A DNA stretch of 44,929 bases. Source: an uncultured Calditrichaceae bacterium (GTDB lineage: Bacteria; Calditrichota; Calditrichia; RBG-13-44-9; J075). The stretch is taken from NCBI GenBank assembly GCA_964416895.1, contig CAYQGB010000002.1, positions 1 to 44,929 of the forward strand, read 5' to 3'. Each line of letters begins with the position of its first letter. The stretch's first letter is position 1. The position numbers were made by a program. Shown one piece after another: positions 18,001 through 33,000 of the stretch.

Positions 18001-21000
18001 AACAAGATGCAAAATTGGTTTTTGGTTGTGTGTTTTCAATGACTTATGCAAATTGCAGGGCTGTAAATCCTCAAAAGTGTCCGAACTATTGCTTTCATCT
18101 TTCCTCAGTATATATTGCCCGGCCCCGGGTATGGGGCAAAAGCTAAGGCGCAAAACAACGCTTTCCTACGGGGAATTTACTTCTGTCTCTTTCCATTGAT
18201 CATCCATTTTTGTAAAATAATTCAGAATGAATTCCGGTTTCTATTGTAAAATTTTAATGTTTTGCGTATGTTTATGAAAAACAATAAGGAACTAAATATC
18301 TGTTGTGAAAAAGATGACCAAAGTCAGTTTTTTGGCTGATACACGTCATTCTTGCACCCGGATTAAGGTTCTATAATATGCTCCAGAACAATAAAGCTCT
18401 GTTCATCAGATAAAGCAAATGTTCCGGGAAAATGTTCCTGGAAGGGGACTTGAAAACAGAGACATAAAACCGAGACGACGGTATAGATTCTGCTTCTTCG
18501 CAGGGGGGTCATTGAAAACAGAGGGGTGATGCTCGCGGTGGTGGATAGAGCAACCCCGGAATAGTGCCGAGATTCCAGCAGTGCCGAAAGTGGATCACCT
18601 GTTTTGAGGATTGTTTCCCGGGGGCCGGTTATACGCCGGCGGGGAAACGAATCAAAAAACTTGCGGGAACAACGGAAGAGGAGATACTGATGGCATTGGA
18701 TCGGCGGAAATTTATCAATTTTTTGCTCGGCACAGGCGTTCTGGGATGGCTGGGCAGCACCCTGTACCCCCTGATTTCCTACCTGATTCCTCCCAAAGTA
18801 CCGGAAGCCACCGTTAACTCCGTGAAAGCGGGACCGCTGGCCGATTTCCCTCCCAACAGCGGGAAAATCATCAAATTCGGGCGCAAGCCGGTGATTTTGG
18901 TTCACACAGAGAGCGGAGAACTCCGGGCCTTTTCGGCAACCTGCACCCATCTGGATTGCATTGTGCAATACCGCCCGGATCTGAAGCACATCTGGTGTGC
19001 CTGTCACAACGGGCACTATGATCTGCAGGGCCAGAACATTTCCGGGCCACCTCCCAAACCCCTGACCGAGTATCAGGTGCAGGTGGTCAACGATGAAATT
19101 ATTGTCTCCAGACCCCAAAACATGAGCTGAAGACAATGAAAAAGTCGTTACAAAAACTATACGGATGGCTGGATGAGCGTTACGATCTCTCCCCTTTGAT
19201 CGAATTCATGCGCCATAAGCAGGTGCCGGTACATCGGCATACTGTGTGGTATTACATGGGAGGGGTTACCCTGTTTCTGTTTATCATTCAGGTGGCCACA
19301 GGCATTTTGCTGCTCCTGTATTACCAGCCGGGAGTGGATACCGCCTACGAGAGTGTACGCTTTATTATGACCAAAGTGCGCTTCGGGTGGTTGATCCGAT
19401 CCGTGCACAGCTGGTCGGCCAACCTGATGATCTTTTTTGCCTTCCTGCACATGTTCAGCACTTTCTTTACCGGCGCTTTTCGGAAACCCCGGGAATTGAC
19501 CTGGGTAAGCGGCTTCATCCTGCTTTCGCTGGCGCTGGGATTCGGCTTCAGCGGGTATCTGCTTCCCTGGAACGAACTGGCCTTCTTCGCCACCAAGGTG
19601 GGCACGGACATCGCCGGGGATTTTCCCCTCATCGGGAAGGCCATCAAGATTGTGTTGCGGGGAGGGGAGGACGTTACCGGGGCCACCCTGACCCGGTTTT
19701 ATGCCTTCCACGTGGCGTTGATTCCGGGAATTTTTACCCTGGTGCTGGCGTTGCACCTCATCCTGGTACAACGCCAGGGGATGCACGAACCGGAGTACCT
19801 CCACCATCTCCCTCCGGAGCGGAAAAAATACATCCCCTTCTTCCCCAACTTTTTGCTTCGGGATATGCTCCTGTGGTTAATCGTGCTGAATGTTCTGCTG
19901 TATCTGGCGGTATTCTTTCCCTGGGAAATGGGGCTGAAGGCGGATCCGTTCTCTCCCGCTCCGGAAGGAATCAGGCCGGAGTGGTACTTCATGTTCATGT
20001 TCCAGACCCTCAAGCTATTGCCGGGGCATGTATGGTTCATTGAAGGAGAGGTGCTGGGCGTGGTCCTGTTTGCCCTGCTGGGATTGGCCTGGCTGCTGGT
20101 GCCCTTCTGGGAAGGCCGATTGCCCCGGGATCGCCGCCCCCGCCCCATGACCGTGCTGGGCATCATCATTGTGGTGTATATCGTCATCATGACCATTTTA
20201 GGATATACCCTTTAAACGGTAACGTAACCATGAAAACCAAACTGTTCCAATTCTCCGGTGTATGGTTTCTGCTGTTCCTGTTAGGTGGAGGACTATCGGT
20301 GGGAAACGGGCTATATGCCCGGGAGACTCCGGAAACGGCGGAAGACTCCCTGGCCCGGGTCATGGAAGCGCTGGGCGATGACCAGTGTATCACCTGCCAC
20401 GTGGATCTGGAAACCCTCCCGGAAGATTTCCATGTTGCCGATGTGCATCTTCAGCCGGGGCTTTCCTGCGCCGGATGCCACGGCGGCGATCCCACGGTGG
20501 ATGACGAAGAGCTGGCCAAAGCCCCGGAAACCGGGTTCATCGGAGTGCCCAAAAAGCAGGATATTCCCGGGGTGTGCGGCAGGTGCCACTCCGATCCCGA
20601 ATTTATGAGAGAATATCAACCCCGCATTCATACCGATCAGGTGGATCGGTATTACACCAGCGTGCACGGAAAGCGGCTTCGGGAAGGCGATCCAAAGGTG
20701 GCCACCTGCACCGATTGCCATACCGCCCATAGCATCCTTCCTGCCAGCGACTCCCGTTCCACCGTGTATGCCCTGAACGTGCCCTTTACCTGTAAAAAGT
20801 GCCACAGCGATCCGGAATACATGAAAGAATACGGGATCCGTACGGATCAATTCGACAAGTTTGCCGAGAGCGTGCACGGAAAGGCCCTGCTGGAAAAACA
20901 GGATACCGGCGCCCCCGCCTGCAACGACTGCCACGGCAATCACGGTGCGGTGCCGCCGGAAGTGACCTCTATTCGCCATGTGTGCGGCACCTGCCACGTG

Positions 21001-30000: not shown

Positions 30001-33000
30001 GCCATAACGGGAAGCCCACCGATACGGCCTCCCGCCCGGTTCGGTCGCTGAACCTGCGCTACAAAATCCTGTTTGCCCAATCCGTGCACGAACCCGCCGC
30101 CGACGGCGATTGCCTGGATTGCCACGAGCCTCACGCGGCTCCCCGGCACGATCTGCTCTCGGAGAATTTCCCCGGAGGAAATTACGCTCCCGGAAAGGTG
30201 GACACCTTCTCCCTGTGCTTCGACTGCCACGATCCGGAGATGATCGAGGAACCCACCACCCGGGAATACACCAACTTCCGCGATGGAGACCGCAACCTGC
30301 ATTACGTTCATGTCACCCGGGAAAAAGGCCGGAGCTGCCGGAATTGCCACGACCTGCACGGCTCGGATCAGCCCCACCTGATCGCCACCGAAGTGCCCTT
30401 CGGCAAATGGAAGATGCCCATCCGATATGAAGCCTCCCAACAGGGCGGAAGCTGCCTGCCCGGCTGCCATGAGCGCCGGGAGTATCGGCGGTGACGCACT
30501 TTAATTCTCCCCCACCCTTCCAGCCGCAACCATAGCCTTTGCCGCCACCTGTGGGTCGATTTCCAGACCGGCAAAATATTACCCGGGTTCAGTTTTGGGG
30601 ATAGTTGTCGATTCACTTATCTTTTCAGTGCTCCATTTCGATCTTTCGGTTTCTCTCTTCCCGGTTTATCTTTGGAAAATAAATATGACAGGCGGAACGT
30701 CCACGGCTACCTTAGCCCTTCGGCCACGCAGATCAGTTCTACGACATTTTGAACCGGATCATATACTCATCAGGGGTTAAAAATTGCTTTTTGACCATCG
30801 CTTAACTCCTTCAGGGGTGCTGATTTCATTATTTCCTCCCGCGGCGGGAGGGTATGGGATAGGCGGGCTATTGAACTCATCCCCCCAACCCCCTTCTTTT
30901 AAAAAGAGAAAGGGGAGAAAAACGCTGTTGTTTTTGGAAAGTAACTATCTCGACAATGTCACATTAGGATTGTCATTCTAAGCGAAGTGAAGAATATTAA
31001 GGTTTCAGAGACTCTTCTCCCGCCGGGCGGGATCAGAGTGACAGAGAAACCGGTCAAATAAACCTTGAAAGCACCGTGGGATAATTTTGAAAAACAGAGT
31101 TATGCTTACAACAATGCAGCCCCACCCGCCGGGGCTGAAGATAAGGAAGCGCCTCGTAGAGGCTCCATTATTGTAGCCGGATGATCCGCCCGGAAAACCC
31201 GCCATCCTCGTAGAGGATGCACAATCGCCTGAATTCATCCCCTACAGGGATGTGGGGGAGTTCTATGAATGGGAACGTGAGCTACAATAATTCAACTTCT
31301 ACGAAGTTGAGGGCAGATGAACATTTCCATCGGCATCGACATTTCACCATCGTTGGCCAATTCCCTGACCGCAGTTCTCCGGAGAAGCTTCATCATCGTA
31401 GTGCGCTTTCAAGGTGTGAATGGCGGGTTGCTACTCTATACACATTATAAGGAGATTCTTCTCCCGCCGGGCGGGATCAGAGTGACATCGAAGCCCATCA
31501 CGTAGTTTTGGTCTCCCATAACGGTGATTTGTCAAAAGTCCAATAAATTAGAATTCTTGCAGATGAATGCTGAATAGTAACTTTCATCTTTAATCTTTTG
31601 GGTATATCAGGGGAGGCATTCCAGGAATGGTGATTATCAGCCTTTTCTTTCTGCTGATCATGCTGGCGGGCGCCGGGGTATTCCTCCACCGGATCAAACC
31701 TCTGCTGGTGAATCCCCGGCATCGGATTTATCTGGGAACAGGTTTGCTGCTACTCATCCTGGGAATTTCTGGATGGGACCTGTGGATATTGCTCCGGTTT
31801 TGGGGATTATGGGAAGCATATCTGATCCCCCTGACCATTGCCTACGTGCTGCAAATTTCCGGTTTTCTGATCAGTTGCGACTTTGCCCTGCGCTGGCTTC
31901 GTTCCCAGAAAACCGCCGTGGAACAGCTCCCGGAGATGCTGGTGGATCGGGCGCTGGTGGGGGTGTATCTGATTCAGGATCAGCGCCTTCAGTATGCCAA
32001 CCCCCGGGCGGCGGAAATTCTGGGATGGGAGCTTTCTCAACTGATCGGCGCCGATCCTCTGGATGTGGTGCTTCCGGAAGATCGGGAACTGGTACGGGAA
32101 CAGATTACCCGGCGGCTTCGGGGAGACGTGGACACGGTGCGATATCGCTTTCGGGTCAAACGCCCCCGGGATGGGCGCCAGATCACCGTGGAAGTCTGGG
32201 GAAGCCGGATCATCTACAAGGGGCGTCCGGCCATTATCGGCACCCTGATGGATGTCACCGCCGAACAGGCCCGGGAAGCGCTGCTGAAAGAGAACGAAGC
32301 CCGCTACCGCCGCCTGATCGAGGTGTGTCCGGAAGCCATTCTGATTCATCGAGAAGGGGAAATTGTCTTTGCCAATCCTGCCGCCGCCCGGCTGTTGGGG
32401 GCTTCCGGAACGGATGCGCTCCAGGGGAAAAATCTTTTCGATTATGTGCCTCCGGAAACGACGCAAAAATTGCGCAACCATCTTCGGCAAGAAATGGAAG
32501 CCCATGCTTCCGGAGCGGTACATGAAGTCCCTCTCCGGCGAATGGACGGCAAATTTATTGTAACCGAGTGGGTTGATGTACCTTTTACCTATCAAAATGC
32601 CCCGGCGGTACAGACCGTTCTGCGGGACGTTACCCATCGCAAGGAAACCGAACAGATTTTCCGGGGGCAAAAACTGCTCCTGGAAGAGATCACCCGGGGA
32701 ACGGAGCTGACCGAGGTTCTGAACAAGCTGGTGGAATTTGTGGAAAGCGTCTTTCCGGACATGCTGGGATCGGTGCTGCTGCTGGATCAGGCCGCTCAAC
32801 GGCTGTATGTGGCCGCCGCCCCCCATTTGCCGGAGGCATACAATCGGGAAATAAACGGGATTACCATCGGGCCCCGGGTCGGCTCCTGTGGCACCGCCGC
32901 CTTTCTGGGAGAGCCGGTGATCGTGGCCGACATTGCCACCCACCCCCTGTGGGAAGAGTATCGCGACATCGCGCTGGAGCATAACCTCCGGGCTTGCTGG

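Follow-up and report, generated by a model that had tools for sequence, protein, structure and literature searches.

A Rieske/cytochrome b complex that shares one gene run with a putative OmcE-type cytochrome nanowire in an uncultured Calditrichaceae bacterium

The omcE clusters of Desulfuromonadia (7TFS, 9YUQ) encode cytochrome nanowires, and the sections of PMC13712944 on which we drew give their minimal form as OmcE, two multihaem cytochromes, two propellers and a large barrel. Where cytochrome nanowires start, where they end and how they are linked to the quinone pool are stated as open in papers of 2025-2026; in the same sections of PMC13712944 (2026), no candidate for the cap (tip) of OmcE wires is given from the operons of Desulfuromonadia. 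Two further systems, Uet of Tenderiales and Gallionella (bioRxiv 2022.05.06.490989; PMC10734462) and Occ of Ca. Dechloromonas occultata (bioRxiv 695007), combine an undecahaem cytochrome with NHL proteins, and the Geobacter extHIJKLMNOPQS cluster (PMC5877670) is a precedent for a porin, multihaem cytochromes, a Rieske protein and a cytochrome b in a single cluster. Here we describe a locus in a window of 44,929 nucleotides (the whole stretch of DNA analysed; contig CAYQGB010000002.1) where a single run of genes encodes testable candidates for the cap and the base of a wire as well as for a quinol oxidase. Our preferred reading, held tentatively and a little short of an even chance, is that a Rieske/cytochrome b/nonahaem complex feeds a putative OmcE-type nanowire with electrons from menaquinol.

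The run consists of eleven co-oriented genes on the plus strand at 18690-30494. The gene order and CxxCH counts given in the genome-wide survey's note were borne out by motif and Pfam re-checks: the cytochrome genes carry, in order, 9, 4, 11, 4, 5 and 7 CxxCH motifs (40 in all), and Pfam confirms the Rieske protein, the cytochrome b and the two NHL propellers. Variant motifs, namely a CxxxCH in the 11-haem protein and a CxxxxCH and a CxxxCH in the 7-haem protein, raise the number of haem-binding sites to 43. The features are:

18690..19130, plus strand: Rieske [2Fe-2S] subunit of 146 aa with a twin-arginine anchor at its N-terminus (PF00355, PF25471)
19136..20215, plus strand: unsplit cytochrome b of 359 aa with 7 predicted helices (Pfam; closest solved structure cytochrome b6, E 1e-60)
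20230..21567, plus strand: nonahaem cytochrome c, helical C-terminal region, one C-terminal membrane helix (CxxCH count, model)
21608..22189, plus strand: exported tetrahaem of the c554 family, NapM-like (PF13435)
22190..22380, plus strand: gap of 191 bp between the bc front and the putative nanowire genes, short hairpin near 22319-22339
22381..23415, plus strand: NHL beta-propeller 1, exported (Pfam); runs into the beginning of the 12-haem gene
23405..25105, plus strand: 12-haem cytochrome, OmcE-like head (residues 2-204) plus extension (7TFS, E 2e-28)
25195..25818, plus strand: OmcE-like tetrahaem, predicted filament subunit (PDB 7TFS, E 5e-27; 9YUQ, E 3e-22)
25956..27047, plus strand: NHL beta-propeller 2, predicted lipoprotein (Pfam; Cys24 in 94% of 85 rows)
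27044..27613, plus strand: pentahaem cytochrome, predicted lipoprotein (Cys23 in 33/33 rows)
27620..29593, plus strand: large outer-membrane beta-barrel (AlphaFold2 pLDDT 92.7, all-beta barrel)
29604..30494, plus strand: exported 9-site cytochrome, 7 CxxCH plus CxxxxCH plus terminal CxxxCH (motif scan)

The front of the run encodes an intact Rieske/cytochrome b complex of the Q-cycle type, which would oxidise quinol in a bifurcated manner and translocate protons. The Rieske gene lies directly before that of cytochrome b, and its product has the two cluster boxes, the disulfide cysteines and a membrane anchor; both boxes and the Gly of the G-Y signature are invariant in 36 alignment rows. The rule that links this signature to potential (PMC4122944) yields a predicted value of about +200 mV. 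In cytochrome b, the haem ligands His 91, 105, 192 and 207 and the Qo motif PEWY, which is of the forward type and not APWY, are invariant in 35 rows. The split cytochrome b and the haem ci cysteine of b6f-type complexes are lacking: the protein is unsplit and has no Cys at the aligned site. The nonahaem, which gives only weak matches to solved structures, occupies the place of cytochrome c1. The NapM-like tetrahaem that follows is 60% identical to one encoded directly before napA in L040, and is likely a periplasmic shuttle. A gene of the futalosine pathway was found in the genome. A riboswitch upstream of the Rieske gene was considered and rejected, as the fold was no better than that of shuffled sequences; Rfam gave no match in the window, nor in 17840-18720 at E<=1.

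By sequence, the tetrahaem of the back half is homologous to filament-forming OmcE, matching both 7TFS (OmcE of Geobacter sulfurreducens) and 9YUQ (OmcE of D. soudanensis) over its full length, and the filament hallmarks are kept in about 100 homologues. Besides four CxxCH motifs it has the non-motif histidines H31, H52, H132 and H182, kept in 101, 96, 102 and 102 of 102 rows, and its tail after haem 4 is only two residues long in 99 of the 102, leaving an open haem-4 end as in OmcE. A ninth His is conserved in 92/102 rows at a place where OmcE has Arg, and because of it the protein may not be a plain filament subunit.

The neighbouring cytochrome had been described as an undecahaem. It does contain 11 CxxCH motifs, but a terminal CxxxCH, with His as the next residue, makes it a 12-site protein built from an OmcE head plus an extension. 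The fold of its model (pLDDT 89) resembles OmcE (Foldseek E 2e-10; VIA Z 13.6, rmsd 2.4, 172 aligned) and also MtrA (Z 10.0, rmsd 3.8, 230 aligned); conservation of its histidines was assessed over 129 rows. When the tetrahaem and the 12-haem head were modelled as a complex they were placed head to tail with a score of 0.74, compared to 0.00 for the best control, a mark that is met by 116/157 solved pairs and by 2/215 mismatched pairs. At least 98% of the contacts agree between runs, the pLDDT of the partners is at least 90, and the modelled interface sets the haem-4 end of the tetrahaem against the His-bearing face of the 12-haem head. This result concerns a heterodimer only and may reflect the model's memory of the OmcE filament. 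On this modelling we regard the 12-haem protein as a candidate wire cap. Of 84 complete loci, 17 have neither the pentahaem nor the 9-site cytochrome, and therefore the 12-haem protein could instead be the base. GC-rich orthologues have long ORFs of 860-1020 aa; a fusion origin was rejected, since in the six loci read these are upstream extensions of the open frame.

The remaining back genes encode the propellers, the pentahaem, the barrel and the last cytochrome. The first propeller is present in 79/84 complete loci, and its lipoprotein Cys, found in 47% of homologues, is absent in this genome. The barrel has about 28 long strands, counted from the secondary structure of the model, and an inserted domain of ~80 residues; it has no Pfam match, and a profile search gave no solved relative. 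A phage tail-tube match on the insert (E 6e-6, below the cut-off) was given no weight. The barrel fold matches other barrels, MtrB (Z 15.2, rmsd 7.1, 437 aligned) being tied with others. In the 9-site cytochrome no His follows the terminal CxxxCH in 49/49 rows, and this protein is a candidate for the wire's base in the periplasm or at the barrel side.

The survey's note had assigned these genes to a Uet/Occ-type conduit. The locus shares with Uet an undecahaem after NHL genes, a tetrahaem and a barrel, by gene class and description, in a different order. The barrel here has about the 28 strands predicted for UetC, and the UetJ candidates of Gallionella are reported to be of the doubled-CXXCH kind, having 11-12 motifs. 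These likenesses, together with those to MtrA and to MtrB among other barrels, would suit a short, non-polymeric porin-cytochrome conduit of the Pcc, Uet or Occ type, in which either the 12-haem rod or the 9-site cytochrome runs through the barrel and the tetrahaem sits on the surface as a lone subunit, its ninth His perhaps blocking polymerisation. We consider this quite improbable: the open haem-4 end of OmcE is retained in nearly every tetrahaem, the gene set is that of omcE clusters, and the genes that define Uet (three c7 trihaems, the PPIase UetB, the cupredoxin UetF and ccsAB/batABD) are found neither in 18690-30494 nor in its flanks. Uet/Occ is not the best fit; the cluster's link to OmcE nanowires shows in its sequences as well as in fold.

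Intergenic gaps in the run are at most 191 bp, the largest lying at the join of the front and back halves. From run X1, possibly the source sample, one contig covers 19981-22997 with zero differences and bridges this gap; an assembly chimera at the join is therefore ruled out. The gap, whose fold has a z of -1.5, contains no U-tract terminator and no promoter-like match, and no gap of the run has a terminator-like match; both the promoter and the terminator scans performed at chance level.

We reproduced the occurrence of the 12-haem gene in 30/86 genomes of the phylum at E<=1e-60. The OmcE-type back module spans about ten phyla and is present in named isolates (L114, L120, L213), so that it is not specific to Calditrichota, and its earlier placement outside Proteobacteria, correct in itself, understates the spread. 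Among the phylum genomes, 21 carry both modules, 9 and 13 only one, and 43 neither; with one genome per genus the counts are 12, 8, 8 and 27 (p 0.009, with related genera not independent). The 9 cluster-bearing genomes (of 30) have no triad orthologue with the query used. In four of the 21 genomes with both, the modules lie within 15 kb, co-oriented in this genome only; in 16 they are on different contigs and in one they are 600 kb apart. Rieske and cytochrome b genes stand beside the cluster in G056 and G020, where the modules are divergent, and 10 kb away in G036. These cases overturn the claims that no relative has the Rieske/cytochrome b front and that the bc link is a single case. On the cytochrome b tree the label 'adjacent' needs 3 changes, and one origin may also fit.

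The front itself is a widespread plug-in with many partners. A single-sequence scan for further nonahaem loci gave 13, and an alignment-based scan was then used: of 78 further loci, 68 have Rieske and cytochrome b next to the nonahaem, and none of the 78 has an OmcE cluster in flanks of up to 10 kb. Conversely, Rieske or cytochrome b occurs in just 2 of 135 distinct 12-haem loci. Elsewhere the triad neighbours NapA, NiFe hydrogenases and MtrA-type genes, and in Blastocatellia a DmsE/MtrA-type decahaem and a gene of 700-800 aa are followed by the same triad. The earlier idea of a multihaem system that spans the envelope and has a quinol interface of the Q-cycle type is supported, but, given how general the bc front is, that interface may not be dedicated to this conduit.

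Such promiscuity, with the separation of the modules in most genomes and the position of the largest gap, would suit two independent neighbours in a respiratory island: a real nanowire cluster beside a bc complex and NapM-like carrier that serve other periplasmic acceptors, for example haem-copper oxidases. In addition, the potentials of the Rieske protein (near +200 mV) and the wire are mismatched, and six COX1-family genes are present. We nevertheless judge independence unlikely, as proximity recurs in different layouts, arising more than once or from a single origin on the cytochrome b tree, the modules co-occur across genera, and the gap shows no terminator-like or promoter-like match.

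Under the preferred reading, in which the bc complex feeds the wire, menaquinol would be oxidised at the PEWY site in a Q-cycle, and the Rieske protein would hand the electrons to the nonahaem, from which the NapM-like tetrahaem would carry them on to the barrel with its pentahaem and 9-site cytochromes. The OmcE-like tetrahaem would polymerise head to tail, each subunit binding its neighbour's open haem 4 with the His that comes after its own first haem motif. The chain would begin at the 9-site cytochrome, which has no His behind its last haem; the 12-haem protein would dock on the last open haem 4 and end the chain because its own last haem has His next to it. The propellers may be assembly helpers. 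It is likely that the bacterium passes electrons from the membrane to minerals or cells outside. However, the potentials fit poorly, since electrons would go uphill from the Rieske centre to a wire like that of D. soudanensis (-145 mV), and for a bc complex the genome also offers alternative acceptors in six COX1-family genes and NarGH. At the far end of the wire a high-potential acceptor would be needed: Mn oxides, an electrode or a partner that respires oxygen or nitrate.

Flow in the opposite direction would be downhill, from a low-potential wire to higher-potential periplasmic haems. Electrons from reduced minerals or partner cells would then reach oxygen reductases (the four oxidases tested are three A-type-like and one cbb3) by way of the tetrahaem and nonahaem, the bc complex running in reverse or in parallel. 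AioAB, SoxY and NiFe hydrogenase show lithotrophic potential, Uet has been proposed for uptake, and Cyc2 homologues are reported in Calditrichota MAGs. We hold this inward route to be improbable: a PEWY motif together with a G-Y Rieske marks complexes that run forward and oxidise menaquinol, APWY those that run in reverse; elsewhere this triad and carrier stand before napA, OmcE has been described from metal reducers, and the genome (88.6% complete) has no RuBisCO match.

A more far-reaching version of the preferred reading, which we put forward as doubtful, would make this one operon a complete, energy-conserving path from menaquinol to a capped nanowire, with Q-cycle complex, carrier, base, barrel, OmcE-type subunit and a dedicated 12-haem tip whose spare conserved His would make contact with metal. 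In that case OmcE-type wires of about ten phyla would have their missing terminator in the 12-haem protein, and Calditrichota would use nanowires to respire solids of high potential, Mn oxides for example. The literature searched, which included few subscription papers, yielded no account of an OmcE cluster in Calditrichota and none of the bc link.

How, then, does the locus compare with described systems? From Occ it differs in having 11 genes, 6 c-type cytochromes and no oxidase subunit, compared to 19 genes, 10 cytochromes and the CcoN-like OccS. Orthologues of the 12-haem protein occur in 21/401 genomes of a Rhodocyclaceae family sample, some with open frames of 924-928 codons, close to the 922 aa of OccP in a comparison by length only; ten Rhodocyclaceae regions gave no match to the oxidase queries and none OccS-like. 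The ext cluster has a 45 kDa porin (ExtI) and a split cytochrome b (ExtP, ExtQ), with no OmcE or propeller described, and the cytochrome b here falls below the ExtP cut-off. Caldithrix abyssi has a Nap-linked Rieske/cytochrome b (PMC5317091) without cytochrome c1 that is proposed to feed the tetrahaem NapM, as here; its acceptor is Nap plus epsilon-Hao, whereas in this run the genes after the tetrahaem are those of the putative nanowire. The closest likeness is to the omcE cluster, for which the consulted sections of PMC13712944 describe the same minimal set; the OmcE-homologous tetrahaem has four further His and ends in a bare haem in both, and the pentahaem and 9-site cytochrome stand for the two other multihaem proteins. 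The barrel is its counterpart by class and by fold, from the model, and where omcE clusters have two propeller lipoproteins, both propellers are present here, with the lipoprotein Cys in the second only. Calditrichota are absent from the five phyla listed for omcE clusters in those sections. Compared to omcE clusters, this locus has in addition a 12-haem protein with an OmcE head, a ninth His in the tetrahaem, and Rieske and cytochrome b genes in front.

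Eleven closely spaced genes make up the run, four in front and seven behind.

18690-30494, + strand: eleven-gene run encoding, in order, a Rieske protein, cytochrome b, a nonahaem cytochrome, tetrahaem A, NHL1, an 11-haem protein, tetrahaem B, NHL2, a pentahaem cytochrome, a barrel and a 7-haem protein

We consider the central finding real: the back seven genes are an OmcE nanowire cluster in a variant form that is new and includes a candidate for the cap, and here they are joined to a widely occurring module of bc type, the triad of Rieske, cytochrome b and nonahaem. The CxxCH counts per gene in the genome-wide survey's note agree with ours; the 11-haem protein has 12 sites with an extra CxxxCH, and the 7-haem protein has 9 with CxxxxCH and CxxxCH motifs (hereafter the 12-haem protein and the 9-site cytochrome). 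Most genes overlap or lie <50 bp apart, the three largest gaps being 191, 137 and 89 bp. The 191-bp join between front and back is spanned by a single contig with zero differences from sequencing run X1, possibly the source sample, and read depth is even across the cluster. This DNA occurs in sequencing runs of two studies, on metagenomes of hot springs and microbial mats, and the phylum is read from the nearest named homologues, which are Calditrichota (66-72%). Upstream, a ~45 bp stretch is repeated either side of the N gap 17739-17838 (window 17700-17900), likely a scaffold overlap at the DUF72 gene start. Downstream are short repeated elements of very high depth in the three runs X1-X3 (30800-31620) and then, at 31627-37374, a hybrid histidine kinase of 1915 aa with ten PAS stretches, a possible regulator.

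The back seven genes probably encode an OmcE-type filament. Among solved structures, tetrahaem B (25195-25818) is matched over its full length by 7TFS (E 5e-27), the G. sulfurreducens OmcE nanowire, and by 9YUQ (E 3e-22), and by no others; these two are the bacterial OmcE filaments that have been solved. Of 102 homologue rows, 101, 96, 102 and 102 retain the respective four His that OmcE has outside its motifs, and in 99 the C-terminus lies two residues past the last haem motif, as in both solved proteins. A ninth His, at a position where OmcE has Arg, is found in 92/102 rows; the ten rows without it are mostly second OmcE-like copies within their own loci. Such in-cluster paralogues lacking the ninth His, and 5-haem OmcE-like ones in different loci, were noted (L074, L078, L095, L139 and L144). 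The lipoprotein Cys is conserved in 94% of 85 rows for NHL2 and in 33/33 for the pentahaem cytochrome, and is absent from NHL1 of this genome. The 657-aa protein is modelled as a barrel of ~28 long strands with an inserted domain (pLDDT 92.7).

What terminates and tips the OmcE wire is posed as a question in the available text of PMC13712944, which finds no candidate for the tip in its omcE operons and describes an interface in which an unsatisfied haem requires a His of the next subunit. Residues 2-204 of the 12-haem protein are an OmcE unit (sequence match E 2e-28; Foldseek E 2e-10; VIA Z 13.6, rmsd 2.4 over 172 residues); beyond it the paired-haem pattern goes on, with weaker MtrA likeness (Z 10.0). 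Outside the motifs 16 His are strongly conserved, for 12 haems, and the protein's C-terminal CxxxCH is followed by a His conserved in 127/129 rows, while the terminal CxxxCH of the 9-site cytochrome lacks a following His in 49/49. The wire would thus be built on the 9-site cytochrome as base, continue as a tetrahaem B polymer and be capped by the 12-haem protein, with ligands that we presume by analogy with OmcS. A complex model of tetrahaem B with mature 12-haem residues 1-260 reached 0.74 (best of three controls, 0.00), a mark attained by 116/157 solved and 2/215 mismatched pairs; contact agreement between runs was at least 98% and partner pLDDT at least 90, and the haem-4 end of tetrahaem B is predicted to contact the His53-bearing face. 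Because this pass may reflect memory of the OmcE filament, it indicates polarity and likeness rather than binding. Of the 84 complete loci, 17 lack both a pentahaem and a 9-site homologue, so the 12-haem protein might serve as an anchor held by the barrel; we lean modestly toward the tip and regard the anchor as a less probable but serious alternative.

The module is widespread. Of the 86 phylum genomes, 30 have the 12-haem gene at full or nearly full length, the count that the survey's note gives for it, and 33 and 36 have matches to the barrel and the OmcE profile. Record titles among the best 80 of 528 and best 80 of 385 in two wider scans of genome contigs include Calditrichota, Bacteroidota with Ignavibacteria, KSB1, alpha-, beta- and gammaproteobacteria, Nitrospirota, Desulfobacterota, Verrucomicrobiota, Planctomycetota, Omnitrophota and BRC1. 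In 84 of the 135 distinct loci, genes for OmcE-like, NHL2 and barrel proteins occur together, the remainder being mostly truncated. In many loci, though not in this cluster, the 12-haem gene is separated from the OmcE-like gene by a one-CxxCH sensor kinase and a response regulator of the sigma-54 type (L032 7322-10185, L031 6005-8855, L244), possibly for redox sensing in wire expression. In the single-contig genome G082 (C1; L246, L247) the cluster is in two pieces ~425 kb apart, broken within the OmcE-like gene.

In the front module, cytochrome b is a single unsplit protein predicted to have seven helices; its PEWY and four haem His are invariant in 35 rows, and it has no haem ci cysteine. 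A twin-arginine anchor is present in the Rieske protein, as is the G-Y signature, which goes with ~+200 mV, APWY marking reverse-running complexes (PMC4122944, available text). An orthologue from this front (at 58% or more) is found in 33/86 genomes, plus one fragment, and is followed by the nonahaem in 29/29 loci read; neighbors of the triad differ (NapA, NiFe hydrogenase, T9SS-tailed cytochromes, NrfH-type six-haem proteins). Tetrahaem A shares 60% identity with the carrier preceding napA in locus L040, which echoes the Nap-linked Rieske/cytochrome b of Caldithrix abyssi (PMC5317091, available part). Outside the phylum, a scan covering 10 of the collection's 64 parts showed Rieske and cytochrome b at 68/78 new nonahaem loci and an OmcE cluster, within flanks of up to 10 kb, at 0/78. 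Seven Blastocatellia loci have a decahaem (five tested, five above the DmsE cut-off) and a 700-800 aa gene, with no NCBIfam match, ahead of the triad. Among a set of 7-8-haem cytochromes (L228, G000:C68 980-2491, in this genome; L037, L062, L058, L054), several of those in relatives sit just upstream of the triad; those of L228, L037 and L062 have a T9SS sorting tail (NCBIfam), and that of L228 resembles OcwA (E 3e-10).

The link to the triad is not the single case it had been called, and relatives do carry Rieske/cytochrome b genes near the cluster: the modules lie <=15 kb apart in 4 of the 21 genomes with both.

Arrangement of the two modules
This genome: co-oriented, 191 bp apart
G056: divergent, 1.2 kb apart
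G020: divergent; CcmF-type gene, six-haem protein and tetrahaem A between; second cluster downstream
G036: 10 kb apart, unrelated genes between; triad adjoins Nap

They are 600 kb apart in one other genome and on separate contigs in 16. In G020 (C7 55000-108000; L032, L033, L034) one triad is flanked by two complete OmcE-type clusters, with an extra NHL gene and a 17-haem cytochrome of 1562 aa. Across the phylum 21 genomes have both modules, 9 the cluster only, 13 the triad only and 43 neither (odds ratio 7.7); the counts are 14/6/8/25 for good genomes and 12/8/8/27 (p 0.009) with one genome per genus, related genomes not being independent. Cytochrome-rich genomes may simply carry both modules. 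On the cytochrome b tree this genome and G056 are sisters (88/86) and adjacency requires three changes, which leaves room for a single origin. We put functional coupling of cluster and front at even chances.

Forward-type motifs and Nap contexts lead us to favor outward electron flow. A Q-cycle from menaquinol (a futalosine-pathway gene was found) would pass through a +200 mV Rieske and so need a high-potential sink. D. soudanensis OmcE titrates at -145 mV with a 370 mV window (PMC13712944, available text); hence either the wire here is more positive, or the acceptor is of the Mn oxide kind, or the two halves are uncoupled. We rate the whole outward model slightly below an even bet. The genome also offers alternatives: six COX1-family genes (of four tested, three A-type-like and one cbb3), NarGH, AioAB, SoxY, NiFe hydrogenase, two ACIII/Qrc-like sets and a second Rieske/cytochrome b. 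RuBisCO had no match in this 88.6% complete genome. A second multihaem island (L229, G000:C94 3580-11969) encodes cytochromes with 20, 31, 22 and 10 haems and has an unassigned gene of 546 aa, preceded by a two-component pair. The second Rieske/cytochrome b (L230, G000:C95 135-6636) is split and resembles ExtP/ExtQ, and the genes ahead of it encode an 8-haem cytochrome and an NAD(P)-binding oxidoreductase; AioAB is followed by a porin-like gene (L242, G000:C210 2284-6796).

The back seven genes had been labelled a likely Uet/Occ-type conduit, a label that suits them less well: the three c7 trihaems, PPIase, cupredoxin and ccsAB/batABD of Uet (bioRxiv 2022.05.06.490989; PMC10734462, available parts) are all absent from the run. 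The Occ cluster is described as 19 genes, one CcoN-like (bioRxiv 695007, available part), and the Gallionella UetJ candidates, in the text available, as doubled-CXXCH proteins with 11-12 motifs. Orthologues of the 12-haem protein are present in 21/401 Rhodocyclaceae genomes, some in frames open for 924-928 codons; as a lead, UetJ and OccP, so far as they are described, may be related to it. The osc cluster goes with OmcS. In Desulfovibrio ferrophilus, according to the portion available, NHL genes adjoin outer-surface cytochromes and single-cluster deletions leave Fe(III) oxide reduction unimpaired. A literature search lacking most subscription papers found no published description of an OmcE cluster variant with a cap candidate and bc module. 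Homologues of OmcS, OmcE and OmcZ occur across bacteria and archaea according to the accessible part of a review, and the available text of PMC13712944 lists OmcE clusters for five phyla and does not contain 'Caldi'. Geobacter extH-S is a precedent for a single cluster that combines a porin with Rieske and cytochrome b (PMC5877670, available part). The smallest omcE clusters comprise OmcE, a large barrel, two propeller lipoproteins and two multihaems (PMC13712944, same text), and this minimal set is present in the back seven genes here, with a lipoprotein Cys in NHL2 but not in NHL1.
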